Assembly (NCBI GenBank): GCA_946611235.1
Contig: CAMODE010000028.1
Span: 601-64,600, forward strand
Origin: an uncultured Bacillales bacterium
GTDB lineage: Bacteria; Bacillota_I; Bacilli_A; RF39; UBA660
Length of the DNA: 64,000 nt
Direction of reading: 5' to 3'
The notes under the pieces: model-generated
Told to the model about the DNA's origin: nothing
Seen by the model: the letters and a program-made list of their open reading frames with translations, nothing else
Databases searched by the model: none
In this document: positions 5,985 through 13,080 of the stretch, one piece after another
Numbering within the stretch: the first letter of the stretch is position 1
Layout of the letters: each line of letters opens with the position of its first letter
Program-made: the position numbers and the translations under genes

Positions 5985-8420
5985 CTAATCTAAATCATGT
6001 CTTGAAAGAATTTCCGCAGGAGTCTTTCTAATCGTATTAAATACCGGGAATAATCCAACAAATAAATTAAATAAATATATAAAGATAATCGTAATAACTA
6101 CTCCAAATAAATTAATAACAAATAAATTAGATAAATACTTAATATCAGATAAAACATCTAATATATAAGCCATAAATAAGATACCAGGTATACTAGCAAG
6201 TGTTGTAATAGCAAATATCTCACCAAAGAACATCTTATAAATATCAATTTTCTTAACACCAATAGCCCTATATATACCAACTTCTTTAACTCTCGATAAG
6301 AAAGAAGACCTAATCATTAAAAATATCTCTATTAAAGATATACCAAGAATAATACCCGAAGAAATAAGTGCACTTCTCGTACTCTCGTTTTTATTCTCTT
6401 TGTATTGTTCTAATAATTTATCATAAACATTAACAATATTCTTACCTTTTTCTCTAAACTCACTAATAGTCTTATCCTTATCATTAGACTTAATAACAAT
6501 ATTATCTTTATTAGTAATCAAATTATATTTAATCGTATTATTATTAACAAAATAATAATTATAATTAAATTTACTATCATAATAGCCCACTACTACTAAC
6601 TTTTTATTATTAACAGAGTAATCAATCTCTTTATTAAGCTTAATATTATATTCATTACTAATATTAACAATAACCTCATAATCATTCTCTGGTAATCTAC
6701 CCTTCTTTAATTCAATCTTATCTTGATATAAAGAATAATCAATCAAAGAACTATCACTCATATCGGGTACCATAGCATAATCATCACTACTACTAGAATT
6801 AGCTAAAATATTTATAAATAAACTATCTTTAACATAAATACTAGGACTACCTAAATTAGTAATACCCACTATCGTAAAAGGATTCATATTATTAATAAGA
6901 GCTTCTCTACCCATCATACCTTCTACATCTTTAATACCAATCATTTTAGCCATACAAACAGGCTCATCAAACATTTTATTAATAGCAAAAGAATCCACTA
7001 CTATCTCATAATCATTTTCAGGCATTCTACCATATACTAAATCTTTATCACTAATCATATCAATAGATGATAAAGATCCCTCTAGAGATCCTCCACCTCT
7101 ACTCGTTTGATAATAATCATTAAACTTCAAATTAAAGTTTACAATTGAACTACCAGGCATCATATAATCAATACTATCAAGTTTTTCATAAGATAGATAA
7201 TCATCTACTTTAATATCCTTCTCATTAAGAAGCAAATACTCTTTATTCGCCGTAACAAAATCATAATCATCTATCTTAATAGTAGCCATAATCGAACTAA
7301 CGGCATACATTAAAAACATTCCTGATAAAAAGAATCCAAATAAAAGTAATTTCTTTAAGAAAGAATAATCAAATACTTTCTTAAATCCATTAATAAGTAA
7401 AGTAATAGGATTAAGTATTGATGAATATTTCTTCTTAATATCTTTATTAATAATACTATTAAAATCAAACTTATACTTATCAATATCTTCTTTACCAATT
7501 TTCTTATAATGATCATCTACTAACTCAATACTAGAATTATCATCAATTACTTCTATCTTGTTATTAGTATTACTCTTAATATAAATATTACCAGAACTAA
7601 CAACAATATCAAGTTTAATCTTCTCTCCATCATTAGAATAAATATTAATATCATGCTCACCTATCTTAGAACTATCCTTATTACCAAAATCTTTTAAATA
7701 AAAGGTATTATCTAATCTATAATCAAGTTCATCATCTGGTTCATTCTTATAGTCTTTAATAACCGTACCATCTTTAATCTCAATAATTCTTGTTGCATAA
7801 AACTTAGCAAGATCTACCTCGTGAGTAACAAGTATTACTAATCTATCTTTCGATATAGCCCTAATAATCTTCATAATCTCAAGCGAGTTCTTACTATCAA
7901 GATTACCCGTCGGTTCATCTGCGAGTATAATATTAGGATCTTTAACAATAGCTCTAGCAATACCTACTCTTTGCCTTTCACCACCAGAAAGCATTGAAGC
8001 AGGTCTCTTTTTATATCTTAGCATTCCTACCTTATCTAATACATATTCTACTCTTTTCTTAATCTCCTCTTTATCTTTAATACCAAGCATTTTAAGAACA
8101 ATAGCAACATTATCAAATACCGAAAGATCCTCTACTAACTTATAGTCCTGAAATATATAACCAATATTTAAATTTCTAATCTTATCAGTCTTATAAGAAA
8201 ACTTCGAATTAATCTTCTTACCATCAATATAAATATTACCCTTACTAAGTTTATCTAATCCCCCAATAGTATTAAGAAGTGTTGTCTTACCACAGCCACT
8301 AGGTCCAAGTAGTGCTACTAAACCTGTACTATCTAAACTAATTGAAGTATCATTAATCGCATGAACTTCATTTCTCTTATGCCTATTAAAATATTTATTA
8401 GCATTCTTAATTTCTAACAT
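5985..8420 (-). CDS. ABC transporter, fused ATP-binding domain and FtsX/MacB-type permease
   Basis: Walker A GPSGCGKTT, signature LSGGERQR and Walker B ILADEPT at the N-terminus. Large extracytoplasmic region and C-terminal TM bundle. Confidence 0.85.
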   Translation of the reverse strand: MLEIKNANKYFNRHKRNEVHAINDTSISLDSTGLVALLGPSGCGKTTLLNTIGGLDKLSKGNIYIDGKKINSKFSYKTDKIRNLNIGYIFQDYKLVEDLSVFDNVAIVLKMLGIKDKEEIKKRVEYVLDKVGMLRYKKRPASMLSGGERQRVGIARAIVKDPNIILADEPTGNLDSKNSLEIMKIIRAISKDRLVILVTHEVDLAKFYATRIIEIKDGTVIKDYKNEPDDELDYRLDNTFYLKDFGNKDSSKIGEHDINIYSNDGEKIKLDIVVSSGNIYIKSNTNNKIEVIDDNSSIELVDDHYKKIGKEDIDKYKFDFNSIINKDIKKKYSSILNPITLLINGFKKVFDYSFLKKLLLFGFFLSGMFLMYAVSSIMATIKIDDYDFVTANKEYLLLNEKDIKVDDYLSYEKLDSIDYMMPGSSIVNFNLKFNDYYQTSRGGGSLEGSLSSIDMISDKDLVYGRMPENDYEIVVDSFAINKMFDEPVCMAKMIGIKDVEGMMGREALINNMNPFTIVGITNLGSPSIYVKDSLFINILANSSSSDDYAMVPDMSDSSLIDYSLYQDKIELKKGRLPENDYEVIVNISNEYNIKLNKEIDYSVNNKKLVVVGYYDSKFNYNYYFVNNNTIKYNLITNKDNIVIKSNDKDKTISEFREKGKNIVNVYDKLLEQYKENKNESTRSALISSGIILGISLIEIFLMIRSSFLSRVKEVGIYRAIGVKKIDIYKMFFGEIFAITTLASIPGILFMAYILDVLSDIKYLSNLFVINLFGVVITIIFIYLFNLFVGLFPVFNTIRKTPAEILSRHDLD

Positions 8421-10651
8421 TATACTTCCTCCTTAAGAGTCTTCATAGCACTATCCTTAAAGATCTTCTTAGCAAACTTAGTACTAATCAAATAAGACAT
8501 AAATAATAGTATTATATAAAGTAATATATAATCTTTAACACCCATATATTCAATTATTGTATGAGCAAAACCTACATTAATAACATTAAAATAATTAAGT
8601 ACAAGGAATACTCCAAATAACAAATAAGCAATATTAGCATCATTAAGAAGTTCAATAATAAGAATTTCTCTCGATACCTTTTTAGTAGCACCTAGCATAC
8701 GAATCGTCGTAAAATAAATATTCCTAGATTTAAGTATAACCTTTATAACAAAGTAAGAAATAAAGAATAAAACTACCACTAATATAACTGTAACAATTGT
8801 TTTAAATATTCTAATTGCAGCTACTGCCTCAGAATTAACTAAAGCATCCGTAAGTTTTAAAGTAGTATAACCACTATCATTTAATTTACTAATAGTACTA
8901 TCAATATCCTTAACATTCTTAACAAAGACACTACTCTGATAACTATTCCTATTAAATAACTTATTATAATCCGTGCTACTAATAAAGATAGCCCCATTAA
9001 TACCATCAAAATCTTTAATACCAAGTAAACTTTCCATATTCTTCTTATTATAAGTCTTTTCCACTTTCAAATTAAGACTATCTTTATAATATAAATTATC
9101 AATATCAATAACAATATCACTACCTATACAATATTCATTCTTACATAAATAATTCATATCACTAGATATATATACCATTCCCTCACTAATACTTCTCTTA
9201 GGTACAATTCTAAAATTATTAACATAATTAGAACTATCATAATATTTACCTTGAAATAATACTTTTAAATTACTATACATCTGATTAATCTGATAAGTAA
9301 GATTATTAAGAATACCATCACTAACATAAATAACATCATCCATATAATAGCCATTCGAATCAGTATAAGATATACCCACTATTTTAACCGGAGTACTCTT
9401 ATCTAATTCCCCTGTATACATGTCTCTTAGATATAACTCTCTATCCATTAATTCATCAGCCATATAACGAATATAATAATCATTCTTCGAACCAGATAAA
9501 ATAACCTCATTATCATTTTCTGGTTTTCTGCCCATATCTATCTTACCATTAAAATTATCTATACTATTAACTCTTGTCGTAAGATAGTAATTATCATCAC
9601 CTAAATCAATCTGTGTATCAAGTAGTAAATCATCCTTAATAATATAATCAACATTACTAATTTTCTCTATATTACTATAGTCTTCATCACTAAAAGAAGT
9701 ACCATCTTTTTTCTTTATAATAATTCTCTCTTCGTCATTATTAAGAAAGAAACCATTATAACCGCTAATACTTTCTAAATGTTCTTCCTCTTTAAAAGAA
9801 GCATACTCTGATATCAAAGCCGTTGTAATAAATAAATAAACAAGAAGTACTAATAAAAACTTCGGTATAATATTAAAAGTATTTCTAATGCCAAGTCTTA
9901 TCTTTGATAAAAAACTAATATTCTTATAATCATTTTCTTCAGTATTAGATACTTCTTTATATTTCTTTAACTCTTTATCTTCGAGTACTTTACCATCGTG
10001 CATCTTTATCTTTCTCGTAGCATACTCTTCGACCTGTTCATAATTATGTGTAACAATAATAACAAGTTTATCTTTAGATATTTCACTAAGAAGTTTAATA
10101 ATACCTTTTGCCGACCTACTATCAAGATTACCTGTTGGTTCATCTGCTATTATAATTGGCGTATCTTTAGCAAGAGCTCTAGCAATAGCTACTCTTTGTT
10201 TTTGACCACCAGATAATTTAGATACCTTAGTATTCCTAAATTTATATAAATCAACAGTTCTAATTAATTCCAATACCTTTTCTTTAATATCTTTCTTCTT
10301 AGCCCCATTAAGTAACATTACAAGTTCAATATTCTGATATACCGTATAACTATTAACAAGATTAAAAGACTGAAAAATATTTCCAATATATCTTCTACGG
10401 TAATCCTCAAAATCAGCTTCCGTATAATGACTAGTCTCTTCCCCATTAATGTACATTTCCCCTTCTTCATAAGAATCAAGTCCACTTATAACATTAAGTA
10501 ATGTTGACTTACCACTACCAGACTCACCAGTAATAACAACAAATTCACCCATCTTAAATTCCAAATTAAGACGACTAAATCCCGAAGCAATAACCCCTTT
10601 ACTATAATAAAACTTTGATACATTCTTAAGTTTAATAATACTTTTCTCCAT
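8420..10651 (-). CDS. ABC transporter, fused ATP-binding domain and FtsX/MacB-type permease (paralogous partner)
   Basis: GESGSGKST, LSGGQKQR, IIADEPT. Overlaps the downstream paralog by 1 nt. Confidence 0.85.
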   Translation of the reverse strand: MEKSIIKLKNVSKFYYSKGVIASGFSRLNLEFKMGEFVVITGESGSGKSTLLNVISGLDSYEEGEMYINGEETSHYTEADFEDYRRRYIGNIFQSFNLVNSYTVYQNIELVMLLNGAKKKDIKEKVLELIRTVDLYKFRNTKVSKLSGGQKQRVAIARALAKDTPIIIADEPTGNLDSRSAKGIIKLLSEISKDKLVIIVTHNYEQVEEYATRKIKMHDGKVLEDKELKKYKEVSNTEENDYKNISFLSKIRLGIRNTFNIIPKFLLVLLVYLFITTALISEYASFKEEEHLESISGYNGFFLNNDEERIIIKKKDGTSFSDEDYSNIEKISNVDYIIKDDLLLDTQIDLGDDNYYLTTRVNSIDNFNGKIDMGRKPENDNEVILSGSKNDYYIRYMADELMDRELYLRDMYTGELDKSTPVKIVGISYTDSNGYYMDDVIYVSDGILNNLTYQINQMYSNLKVLFQGKYYDSSNYVNNFRIVPKRSISEGMVYISSDMNYLCKNEYCIGSDIVIDIDNLYYKDSLNLKVEKTYNKKNMESLLGIKDFDGINGAIFISSTDYNKLFNRNSYQSSVFVKNVKDIDSTISKLNDSGYTTLKLTDALVNSEAVAAIRIFKTIVTVILVVVLFFISYFVIKVILKSRNIYFTTIRMLGATKKVSREILIIELLNDANIAYLLFGVFLVLNYFNVINVGFAHTIIEYMGVKDYILLYIILLFMSYLISTKFAKKIFKDSAMKTLKEEV

Positions 10652-10787
10652 ATATTCCTCCTACATATTAATTATACTATTTTTTTATTAATTTATCTTC
10701 CTTTTTCATCATATATTTACACTTTACACATAAAGTGTAAATCATATTATAATCTAATTAATAAATGACAATACTATTTTTCTAAAA

Positions 10788-10810
10788 TGAGGTTCCAAAT
10801 TGGAACCTCA
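10788..10810. repeat. perfect palindrome TGAGGTTCCAA-A-TTGGAACCTCA
   Basis: 11-bp arms. Encodes LRFQFGTS on the minus strand of the decayed ORF6N copy. Confidence 0.9.
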
Positions 10811-10866
10811 AGTTTCCATAACAATATAATTACCTAAGTTTTTATATCTGACACCACACTTTACCT

Positions 10867-10891
10867 TTTTGGTCAATTTTTTTGACCAAAA
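10867..10891. repeat. palindrome TTTTGGTCA-(7)-TGACCAAAA
   Basis: 9-bp arms; in the decayed ORF6N copy. Confidence 0.85.
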
Positions 10892-10920
10892 GTTCATACC
10901 ATCAACATCCCTCCATTTGC

Positions 10921-10937
10921 GGTCAAAATTTTTGACC
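10921..10937. repeat. palindrome GGTCAAAA-T-TTTTGACC
   Basis: 8-bp arms; in the decayed ORF6N copy. Confidence 0.85.
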
Positions 10938-11113
10938 ACAAAATACTGTACTTATAATCACTAACTTATTTTTTTTTTTAGTACAAATCTTACAATGATA
11001 AATGTTTGTCAAATCATTATCAAGCATTATATATTTACATTTATTTCATATATTTTATCTTTAATATTTACCTTTTTTTCCATTGTCAATTCATTCATAC
11101 CAAACTCTCCTAT

Positions 11114-12049
11114 CTACAATCTACTAAGTAATTCTTTAATCATTTTTTCATCTTTAATCTTATTAATAGCAAAACACTTCTTACCTAAATCTTTAAAAGA
11201 AGCGCCACAGTGATATACATCACTTTCATCTATAATAATAAATCTATCATGAAATCCATTATCCATCTTAAAAGTAACATTACTATACTGACTATTATAT
11301 TTACTAATTAAATTATTAGCAATATTTTTACTATATATAGTAATCTTCTTATTAGTCTTTAATAAAATATCTAATAACTCTTTAGATACATAATTATCAA
11401 TAACAATAATATTCTTTTTAGAAGTATCAATAATTTTAAGAAGTAAACTATACGCATCATATATTTCCCCATCATAAAAAATTTCATTGCTAATACAATC
11501 AAACTTATAAAAAGTCTCCTTAAGTAGTTTAATATCGTTATCATGTTCTAATACTAAATTATTAATATATCTTTGTTCTAATAAATTATCCGATATAAAT
11601 CTTCTCATTCCAACAAAAGCATTCATAATAGCAATACTAGTTTTAATAGCCTTATTTGTTTTAAGTAATGAACTAAGCATAGCAACTCCTTGCTCCGTAA
11701 AAGCATATGGTAAATACTTTATATTTAGCCCTTGCCTCTTCTTGTTTTTGTTCAAGGCCACACTTTGTGGCCTTGAAATATTATTATTAACATCATTCTG
11801 TATAAAATCATCTTCATTCAAGATCACATTTTGTGATCTTGAATATAATAGTTGAAGTTCATCTTGCGTTAATTGAAAACAAAAGTCTTCAGGAAATCTA
11901 TCCTTATTTCTCTTAACAGCCTGATTAATTATTCTTGTCTCAGTATCATAAAAATACGCCAAATCCTTATCCAAAATAACTTGCTTTCCTCTTATCTCAA
12001 AAATATAATCTTCAATCTTTACATTATCTCTAACAATTATTTCATTCAT
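11114..12049 (-). CDS. ORF6N (KilA-N-related) domain protein
   Basis: N-terminal IFEIRGKQVILDKDLAYFY...RFPEDFCFQLT...YLPYAFTEQGVAMLSS and C-terminal FYDGEIYDAYSLL...IDNYVS...FHDRFIIID...YHCGASFKDLGKKCFAI. This is the typical two-domain ORF6N-family layout. Confidence 0.8.
   Translation of the reverse strand: MNEIIVRDNVKIEDYIFEIRGKQVILDKDLAYFYDTETRIINQAVKRNKDRFPEDFCFQLTQDELQLLYSRSQNVILNEDDFIQNDVNNNISRPQSVALNKNKKRQGLNIKYLPYAFTEQGVAMLSSLLKTNKAIKTSIAIMNAFVGMRRFISDNLLEQRYINNLVLEHDNDIKLLKETFYKFDCISNEIFYDGEIYDAYSLLLKIIDTSKKNIIVIDNYVSKELLDILLKTNKKITIYSKNIANNLISKYNSQYSNVTFKMDNGFHDRFIIIDESDVYHCGASFKDLGKKCFAINKIKDEKMIKELLSRL
11751..11777. repeat. intragenic palindrome TTCAAGGCCACA-CTT-TGTGGCCTTGAA
   Basis: 12-bp perfect arms. 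Encodes SRPQSVALN. Confidence 0.9.
11816..11844. repeat. intragenic palindrome ATTCAAGATCACA-TTT-TGTGATCTTGAAT
   Basis: 13-bp perfect arms. Encodes SRSQNVILN. Same flanks as 11751-11777 but a compensated core (AT/AT versus GC/GC). Confidence 0.9.
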
Positions 12050-12064
12050 CTATATCCCTCCCAT

Positions 12065-12919
12065 CTACAGTCTACTAAATAATTCTTTAATCATTTTTTC
12101 ATCTTTAATCTTACAAATAGCAAAACACTTCTTACTCAAATCTTTAAAGGAAGCTCCACAGTGATATACATCACTTTCATCTATAATTATAAATCGATCA
12201 TGGAATCTATTATCAATCTTAAAAATAACATTACTATACTGACTATTATATTTATTAATTAAATTATTATCTATATTTTTACTATATATAGTAATATCTT
12301 TATTAGTCTTAGATAAAACATCCAATAACTCTTTAGATACATAATTATCAATAACAATAATATTCTTTTTAGAAGTATCAATAATTTTAAGAAGTAAACT
12401 ATATGCATCATATATTTCTCCATCATAAAATATCTCATTACTAAATGTTTTATTATTAAAATTATTTTCTAATATTTTAATTCTATCATCATGATCCAAT
12501 AACATATTCTTATAAAAATTTTGTTCTAATAAACTATTAGATAAATAGTTTTTCATTTTAATAAAAGCATCCACTATTTTTAAACTCATTTTAATAGCCA
12601 AATCACTTTTTAAAACACCTGCAAGCATTGTAACACCATGTTCGGTAAAGACATATGGTAAATACTTTCTATGTTCACCACGTCCCTTATTCTTTAAGGT
12701 GCCAAATTGGCACCTTAAAGAATTATATTCACTCTCAGTTAACTGAAAGCAATAATTTTCAGGAAATCTTTTAATATTTCTAGCAACTTGTCGATTTAAT
12801 TGTTTAGTCTCGTATTCAAAGAACATAGCAAGATCAGAATCAAGCATAACCCTTTGACCTCTTACCTCATAAATATAATTTTCAATTCTAACATCATCTT
12901 TAATTATTAACTCATTCAT
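12065..12919 (-). CDS. ORF6N (KilA-N-related) domain protein, tandem paralog
   Basis: MNELIIKDDVRIENYIYEVRGQRVMLDSDLA...RFPENYCFQLT...YLPYVFTEHGV. Start trimmed to the Met after GGAGGG SD (ORF track 13000). The 3' ~440 nt are near-identical to 11114-11560. Confidence 0.8.
   Translation of the reverse strand: MNELIIKDDVRIENYIYEVRGQRVMLDSDLAMFFEYETKQLNRQVARNIKRFPENYCFQLTESEYNSLRCQFGTLKNKGRGEHRKYLPYVFTEHGVTMLAGVLKSDLAIKMSLKIVDAFIKMKNYLSNSLLEQNFYKNMLLDHDDRIKILENNFNNKTFSNEIFYDGEIYDAYSLLLKIIDTSKKNIIVIDNYVSKELLDVLSKTNKDITIYSKNIDNNLINKYNSQYSNVIFKIDNRFHDRFIIIDESDVYHCGASFKDLSKKCFAICKIKDEKMIKELFSRL
12691..12721. repeat. intragenic palindrome TCTTTAAGGTGCCAA-A-TTGGCACCTTAAAGA
   Basis: 15-bp perfect arms. 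Encodes SLRCQFGTLKN. Confidence 0.9.
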
Positions 12920-13080
12920 ACCAAAACCCTCCAAAAAATTATTTTTTTTACCGCCAATCTTAGGTACCAAAACTTTATCACAAATCATATAGCATGTCAA
13001 TACATTTTTTAATATATTTATTTACTTGAACAAAAAAAGATAACTGTATTAGTTATCTTTCCGATATATATTTAAAATTA

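Follow-up and report, generated by a model that had tools for sequence, protein, structure and literature searches.

The two intact ORF6N genes in a 64,000-nucleotide (nt) stretch of DNA from an uncultured Bacillales bacterium (contig CAMODE010000028.1; the whole stretch is called the window below) carry, inside the coding sequence of the ORF6N domain, perfect DNA palindromes whose arm sequences differ from gene to gene, and a third, decayed copy beside them carries three further units. The palindrome is constrained at the nucleotide level, has the same position throughout the family and is related to the encoded protein by a residue-to-base code. With a probability of about 0.6, judged from this covariation in sequence, we take it to be the double-stranded DNA that the ORF6N domain coded by the same gene recognises as its cognate site. 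Autorepression as the outcome of such binding is a further step, in which we place less confidence than in the binding itself.

In copy 1 (12065-12922 on the minus strand, ATG at 12919, 284 amino acids from the Met) the palindrome occupies 12689-12723, with its centre at 12706, and reads ATTCTTTAAGGTGCCAA-a-TTGGCACCTTAAAGAAT, i.e. two perfectly paired arms of 17 nt around a single base (17+1+17). It encodes NSLRCQFGTLKN and its half-site core is GGTGCCAA. A preliminary description, made from the letters of the window, had placed it at 12691-12721, which is short of its real extent; all other palindromes listed there are present. Copy 2 (11114-12049, minus strand, 311 amino acids) has two perfect units: unit 1 at 11816-11844 (centre 11830, 13+3+13), encoding YSRSQNVILN with the core AGATCACA(A), and unit 2 at 11751-11777 (centre 11764, 12+3+12), encoding ISRPQSVALN with the core AGGCCACA(A). 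On aligning the two copies, unit 2 is seen to lie in a 66-nt in-frame insertion in copy 2. It differs from unit 1 by two changes per arm (GATC to GGCC) and the palindrome is still perfect, with position 6 off the consensus (C, not T). The third tandem copy is a pseudogene (10785-11101, minus strand), frameshifted and truncated at its 3′ end, in which the remnants MNELTMEKKVNIKDKIYEI and KYIMLDNDLTNIYHCK are followed by three palindrome units; its N-terminal pieces fall in two frames (E-value 3e-7, tblastn with the paralogues). Unit A (10916-10942) is TTTGCGGTCAAAA-t-TTTTGACCACAAA, with 12 of 13 pairs kept between 13-nt arms; unit B (10867-10891) is TTTTGGTCAA-ttttt-TTGACCAAAA (10+5+10), the two innermost pairs being lost; and unit C (10788-10810) is TGAGGTTCCAA-a-TTGGAACCTCA (11+1+11, perfect), which reads NLRFQFGTSF followed by a stop. 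The decayed third copy with three units, as described earlier, is thus real. All units have a common centre, namely codon position 1 of the residue after Q/K in L-R/K-S/C/F-Q/K-x-x-T. In the genome as a whole, 7 of the 7 intact ORF6N copies have a perfect palindrome with arms of 12-17 nt at this codon centre, and the arm sequence is different in each.

The same holds across the family. We gathered 80 loci from species-representative genomes by peptide patterns N-terminal to the palindrome, which leaves the selection unbiased; they span Bacillota, Bacteroidota, Nanoarchaeota, Desulfobacterota, Spirochaetota, Actinomycetota, a contig of 67% GC and others. The palindrome is present at the same codon centre in these loci, and in nearly all genes the ATG precedes this centre by ~210 nt. 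In 87 sequences aligned on the centre, the share with complementary bases is 75-100% at each position from ±1 to ±13. A distant phylum (that of genome G301, locus L079) has ORF6N in 179 of 301 genomes, with up to 8 matches per genome; its proteins are mostly 170-200 amino acids long and without the phospholipase D (PLD)-like domain, and at least 11 of 13 pairs are found in 27 of 30 genes. For viral contigs the corresponding figure is at least 10 of 13 pairs in 21 of 24 distinct variants. A first viral scan with N-terminal patterns gave no match and patterns 3′ of the palindrome then succeeded, the matches among named phages being limited to 4 unannotated faecal phage records. As a control we used the Rha family (PF09669), for which six genes of related genomes (L200-L205) gave background only, at best 7-9 of 13 pairs at scattered positions; both ORF6N proteins of the window are below the Rha cut-off. 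The intragenic palindrome appears to be specific to ORF6N within its group of families.

A palindrome inside a conserved coding motif may be a by-product of the peptide, here L-R-S-Q-F-V-T-S, together with codon usage, and Q-F/I-V/G (CAA-TTT-G..) is indeed self-complementary over a few bases. A synonymous shuffle had been named in the preliminary description as the check for this, and we ran it with the amino acids fixed and the synonymous codons redrawn from GC-matched usage. The genes have 13.4 complementary pairs of 15 as against 6.3 of 15 in the null (p ≤ 0.001 in 81 of 86 genes), and the excess holds at loci of 50-67% GC. Across the dyad, Leu coded by TTA/TTG goes with Leu/Ser at +3, and Ser coded by TCA/TCG goes with Val/Ala or Ser at +1, i.e. 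synonymous changes in one arm are coupled to amino-acid changes in the other. The genome itself offers a natural experiment in a truncated ORF6N copy (C33:20228-20488), where the palindrome (C33:20388-20412) is read in another frame, giving LLVENFDQK and not L-R-S-K-I-S-T, and the frame is restored by a second indel in an A-run. In this copy GGTCGAAA, the site that its K40/E44/N48 helix calls for under the code given below, is still in place; the peptide has been lost and the DNA kept. The shuffle null and this frame-shifted copy rule out the by-product explanation, against which there are also palindromes in non-coding DNA and a peptide modelled as a disordered loop, and we give it next to no chance. 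The family-wide pairing and the null bear out the earlier inference of selection on a dyad-symmetric nucleic-acid element within the coding sequence, with in-frame duplication of the unit.

The bases of the arms can be predicted from the protein. Each residue outside the palindrome-coded stretch was scanned against each variable palindrome base for mutual information (residue numbers are those of the AlphaFold2 model of copy 1). A normalised value (nMI) of at least 0.6 is reached only at residues 40, 41, 44, 48 and 83/84/86, each with its own base positions: residue 48 with position 3 (0.87, and at most 0.06 elsewhere), residue 44 with positions 4 and 5 (0.83 and 0.74), residue 41 with the same two (0.70 and 0.67), residue 40 with position 7 (0.72) and residue 86 with position 10 (0.78). 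The more variable residues 33, 51 and 56 do not exceed 0.34, and this position-specific pattern argues against plain phylogenetic carry-over. Residues 40, 41, 44 and 48 share one helix face, and the direction along the helix corresponds to the direction outward from the dyad. In the resulting code, residues 40, 44, 48 and 86 predict the palindrome bases 8/7, 5/4, 3 and 10, respectively. At residue 44, Gln goes with A, Glu with C on the opposite strand, Arg/Lys with G and Leu with T; at residue 48, Arg goes with G and Asn with A; Lys at residue 40 goes with GG; and at residue 86, K goes with A and R with G. To judge from the sequences, these are the chemically standard, textbook pairings of direct major-groove readout. 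The four combinations of E/Q at 44 with R/N at 48 give the expected cores TCGCAA, TCGAAA, TCACAA and TCAAAA.

In the set used to derive the code, the predicted 5-mer is found in 85 of 94 distinct genes as compared to 14.3 after shuffling; at 35 of these 85 code-matching sites the predicted core is on one arm only. Among genes not used in the derivation the core is right in 46 of 49, which divides into 19 of 20 from the bacterium's own class and 27 of 29 from the distant phylum (shorter proteins, GC 0.35-0.60). The base for residue 86 is right in 17 of 17 and 28 of 29 of these sets, respectively, and K40 goes with GG in 31 of 37 cases as against 2 of 13 for non-K (both sets). In gene pairs that are 84-90% identical outside the helix and the site, residue 44 or 48 and both arms switch together. 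All 7 copies in the genome obey the code: in copy 1, K40/R44/R48/K86 calls for GG, GC, C and A, which matches its own palindrome, and unit 1 of copy 2 matches R40/Q44/R48/K86. For each 21-bp site, searched with up to 3 mismatches, the only matches in the 1.27-Mb assembly are within ORF6N genes, whether its own gene or a paralogue that shares the code, and the copy-1 site is the sole such site in the assembly. Therefore these domains have no other evident host target. Among the roles suggested in the preliminary description, that of an operator for the ORF6N domain is thus favoured, as the helix residues predict the palindrome bases.

Both intact copies belong to ORF6N (Pfam PF10543) with 116.5 and 104.1 bits for copies 1 and 2 against a cut-off of 27.8 (E-values 6.5e-34 and 5e-30), and match the PADLOC candidate defence family PDC-S05 (PDLC04869) over nearly the whole protein (2e-95 and 1e-90). 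A cold-seep representative of PDC-S05 is reported to protect E. coli B, on which the phages T7, T5 and T4 then plated less well (bioRxiv 10.1101/2024.09.26.614923); the same source gives that representative a RhuM domain, and it may be of a different subfamily. The model of copy 1 (51-sequence alignment, mean predicted local distance difference test score, pLDDT, of 79) has a beta-hairpin, a helix-turn-helix made of helices 28-35 and 39-48, a long helix (107-156) and a C-terminal domain. Codons of the predicted recognition helix are at 12776-12808 in copy 1 (minus strand, TKQLNRQVARN, residues 39-49) and at 11906-11938 in copy 2 (minus strand, TRIINQAVKRN), and those of HRKYL, with the K86 that co-varies with palindrome position 10, at 12659-12673 in copy 1 (minus strand). 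The palindrome-coded peptide (residues 72-83) is the lowest-confidence segment of the ORF6N domain (pLDDT below 50) and looks like an unstructured loop in the model; it is at this loop that the in-frame unit duplications occur. A sequence search of the PDB gave no match. With Foldseek, the C-terminal domain matches NucT (6ehi, E-value 4e-6, template modelling (TM) score 0.59 on the target) and also Zucchini (4ggj), PLD3 and TDP1, which supports a PLD fold. Its catalytic-motif region has a nearly invariant H241-D242-R243-x4-D248 ... G256-A-S258 in place of H-x-K-x4-D ... G-S-x-N, i.e. Arg for Lys and no Asn. The whole chain shows the architecture of TrmB/TrmBL2, and the modelled fold, being TrmB/TrmBL2-like overall with a C-terminal domain like that of the dimeric PLD nucleases NucT and Zucchini, supports a dimer.

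If the palindrome is the operator of its own gene, the ORF6N protein would be a homodimer, each chain of which contributes a helix-turn-helix at its N-terminus, a long helix for pairing and, at its C-terminus, a PLD-like domain of a type that functions in dimeric form. The recognition helix of each chain (residues 39-48) would lie in the major groove of one half-site and read bases 3-8 from the dyad, and residue 86, just past the loop, would read base 10. The site follows the codons of the helix at a distance of ~25 codons, where the flexible loop is encoded, and since it is placed there, the DNA requirement would largely dictate the signature peptide L-R-S-Q-x-x-T-S. Bound ~210 nt inside its own reading frame, the protein may act as a transcriptional roadblock and limit its own expression, independently of the promoter behind which the gene lands, which would suit genes that are often transferred and potentially toxic; extra sites in the promoter region may help this self-limitation at a few loci. 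In copy 1 the palindrome is inside the coding region and downstream of a promoter-like TTGACA-17-(TG)TAAAGT (12972-13000, minus strand, by consensus scan only), so that ~260 nt of transcript would precede it. With its site, the DNA-binding module would make up one portable, tightly linked cassette.

An mRNA hairpin was another role put forward in the preliminary description. A stem-loop in the ORF6N transcript that controls its translation, stability or RNase III processing would have a stem of 13-17 bp, very stable as RNA, and it would be within the translated region. But an RNA stem would tolerate G·U and avoid A·C, and among the 65 mismatched pairs in 63 distinct 27-mers, taken on the sense strand, the G·T type (15) is not commoner than the A·C type (19), the remaining 31 being of other types. 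We therefore see no selection on the transcript. The sense strand also has no Rho-independent tail after the palindrome, the amino-acid/base code of the major-groove kind is ill-suited to A-form RNA, and the same units are found outside coding sequence too, upstream of promoters. For want of a G·U bias the mRNA hairpin was rejected, and we leave it a very slim chance. An intrinsic terminator was rejected as well, there being no sense-strand match. The only unit that scores terminator-like is 11751-11777, on the plus strand and hence antisense to the gene, with a T-rich run after it.

In all, 113 units lie inside ORF6N segments and 26 outside. Six units are in the 355-nt intergenic region upstream of the ORF6N gene of locus L026 (L026:1146-1500), three are in non-coding DNA upstream of that of L018 (L018:1270-1500), and L057 and L059 have one promoter-proximal non-coding unit each. 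Of such units in non-coding promoter-proximal DNA, those that match the code number 3 of 5 in L026, 2 of 3 in L018 and 1 of 1 in L059. Three perfect GGTCGCAA units were observed in L026 (Glu44) and one in L018 (Gln44). A further, isolated unit, TTTTTAGTCGCAA-t-TTGCGACTAAAAA (G000:C60:8516-8542), is on another contig of the bacterium's own genome (G000), in an intergenic stretch of 105 nt; an ORF6N gene starts 82 nt downstream of it, and a possible TTGCGA-N18-TATTAT promoter overlaps with it. The core of this unit is of the E44/R48 type, for which the assembly has no matching protein.

A different way to use the palindrome as DNA would be an extruded hairpin or cruciform, formed in single-stranded or supercoiled DNA and read either by general machinery (replication, recombination, SbcCD, resolvases) or by an ORF6N monomer on the stem. 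The near-perfect complementarity to ±13, and to ±17 in copy 1, is what such a structure would need, and mixed states are almost absent at two-state positions (at position 10, A-T in 32, G-C in 30 and mixed in 1). The truncation end of the pseudogene abuts its last palindrome (within 2 nt), and a monomer that reads a hairpin stem would likewise be compatible with the residue-to-base code. However, the innermost pairs, ±2 and ±3, are 98-99% complementary with a conserved AA-N-TT, which the tip of a hairpin could not pair, and there is always one fixed central base, also in the non-coding units. Moreover, a core on one arm only (35 of 85) leaves an intact half-site in duplex DNA, but puts mismatches where the helix would read a stem, and specific bases are kept in non-coding copies. 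We regard the hairpin or cruciform as unlikely.

It may also be asked if the symmetry is kept up by mutation, whereby template switching at quasi-palindromes copies one arm onto the other and the arms evolve in concert. The arms do change together, and perfect palindromes persist in the dead copy. But this leaves unexplained why bacteria, archaea and viral contigs all have the palindrome at a single codon position, why genomes of 50-67% GC retain A/T-rich codons, and how helix residues 25 codons away predict the bases. Imperfect states are also common to separate species (L018/L026, L031/L048, L055/L067), so homogenisation is not fast. As the sole explanation template switching is quite improbable; it may help both arms to switch together.

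Several points weigh against the palindrome being a self-encoded operator. Its perfect symmetry of 27-35 bp is longer and cleaner than that of usual operators, and a roadblock at +210 is typically a weak or modest repressor. Less than half of the non-coding units upstream of an ORF6N gene match the code of that gene, so that their role as operators of the adjacent gene is true in part only; most of the non-matching ones adjoin ORF6N fragments and are probably relics of dead tandem paralogues. A general model of promoter operators with looping was rejected, since a gene's own half-site is present within 200 nt upstream in only 9 of 70 genes. L018 and L026 are 97% identical apart from the helix and the site and differ at residue 44 (Q/E), yet their internal site is the same; the pair may be a specificity switch caught midway. 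A tree-based test of independent pairs gave 3-6 pairs on supported branches, all in the expected direction, with p of 0.03-0.25, and is underpowered and not decisive alone. The code is partly derived from the data that it describes, and the out-of-sample genes are still homologues. Lastly, helix and loop residues may be coupled within the protein, but the loop is modelled as disordered.

As to the surroundings, the trio has an ABC-transporter pair (5985-10651) on one side and a small membrane protein and a RecD-like helicase on the other. The host genome (1.27 Mb, 26.5% GC, 92% complete) has about 10 ORF6N copies or fragments, intact and broken (12 search matches, several overlapping). The tandem intact copies are 88-100% identical over their last ~340 nt (11114-11450 against 12065-12400) and 50-80% identical over the first ~590 nt, which suggests that the PLD-like end has undergone gene conversion, or that the DNA-binding end was replaced along with its site as one module. 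The identity switch is ~400 nt 3′ of the palindrome and the N- and C-terminal flanks of the paralogues look congruent, so a recombination breakpoint at the palindrome was rejected; nothing specific speaks for the recombination or hairpin-recognition site that had been suggested earlier. A perfect 12+4+12 palindrome of a sequence unrelated to the ORF6N units, ATTTACACTTTA-cacA-TAAAGTGTAAAT (10715-10742), is found just upstream of the ABC-transporter gene start at 10651 (minus strand). Promoter-like hexamers overlap with this palindrome, which is probably an operator of the ABC-transporter operon. Elsewhere in the genome, G000:C42:14300-15064 has at least 7 perfect palindromes of 24-26 bp, (T)TATGTTCCAC|GTGGAACATA(A), at a spacing of ~92-107 nt, with GGGAAATAATT-type palindromes nearby, which could be an iteron, centromere or operator array. 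A palindrome family TCAAAC/GTAAC ... GTTAC/GTTTGA is seen on many G000 contigs, several times near contig ends (C16:105, C26:15, C35:512, C9:31043, C60:17107, C40:34525, C58:24361 and others). A repeated element that has it as terminal inverted repeat may account for this family, as may a widespread operator.

Sites inside the gene of the protein that binds them have precedents. In phage lambda, the iterons of ori-lambda are dyad-symmetric O-protein sites that lie in frame inside gene O, in a segment coding for a flexible linker, and vary in unit number. The ORF6N palindromes resemble them in lying within the protein's own gene, in a linker- or loop-coding segment, and in their variable unit number. 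Yet the lambda sites are a replication origin known from one phage group, whereas the ORF6N palindrome is a feature of the whole family, in bacteria of many phyla, in archaea and on viral contigs; the genes that contain it, of defence type and others, have no evident role in replication, and the proteins are unrelated. Similarly, a parS site is found inside spo0J/parB of Bacillus subtilis and other bacteria, a widely conserved palindrome to which the product of the surrounding gene binds, as we propose for ORF6N. ParB has several further parS sites near oriC and acts in segregation, unlike ORF6N, where the site is only in ORF6N genes of the assembly and specificity differs between paralogues. 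Intragenic roadblock operators include lac O2 and those of CcpA and CodY. Another is that of PurR in purB (He and Zalkin 1992, as cited in PMC10310618). In these, a repressor site a few hundred bases into the coding region hinders the elongating RNA polymerase, the mechanism that we infer for ORF6N; but they are single cases that regulate other genes and are outside the sequence coding for the regulator's own DNA-binding domain, while repression by ORF6N would be of its own gene. Covariation of a few recognition-helix positions with operator bases across paralogues is known from comparative genomics of LacI/GalR (PMC4052901). There the operators are in the promoters of target genes and have to be found by regulon reconstruction, whereas the ORF6N site is inside the gene, and protein and site come in one sequence. 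Of the archaeal regulators TrmB/TrmBL2, TrmBL2 binds DNA with little sequence specificity. They are the best whole-chain match (PDB 5bqt, 3qph) and, like the model, begin with a winged helix-turn-helix, continue with a long helix and end in a domain of PLD-like topology, but at TM-scores of ~0.3 and 10-15% identity this is a resemblance in architecture, not membership. None of lambda O, parS/parB, the roadblock operators or the LacI-type regulators is a family-wide self-site within the domain that shapes its signature motif. We found no paper on an intragenic palindrome of ORF6N, and the papers found that name ORF6N are silent on a palindrome in the gene.

We put at about even odds the wider proposition that ORF6N is a large family of DNA-binding domains, found in bacteria, archaea and phages, with an operator hard-wired in the coding sequence of its own domain, the DNA site dictating the signature peptide. 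Reading head and target would then be inherited, and would switch specificity, as one cassette of ~150 bp; the target would be readable from the protein by the four-residue code (40, 44, 48, 86); and the family would supply a promoter-independent self-limiting module with a ready set of orthogonal specificities. If ORF6N does bind the palindrome in its own gene, the protein motif of a widespread family would be conserved for the DNA that encodes it and not for the protein, which bears on how domain signatures and purifying selection are interpreted. The recognition code, one residue to one or two bases, can be tested on hundreds of natural protein/site pairs that each lie within a single gene, and would make an unusually clean system for the evolution of DNA-binding specificity and for building orthogonal regulators. 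It also points to a possible way in which the PDC-S05 candidate anti-phage genes and the ORF6N 'antirepressors' of unknown mechanism may be controlled.

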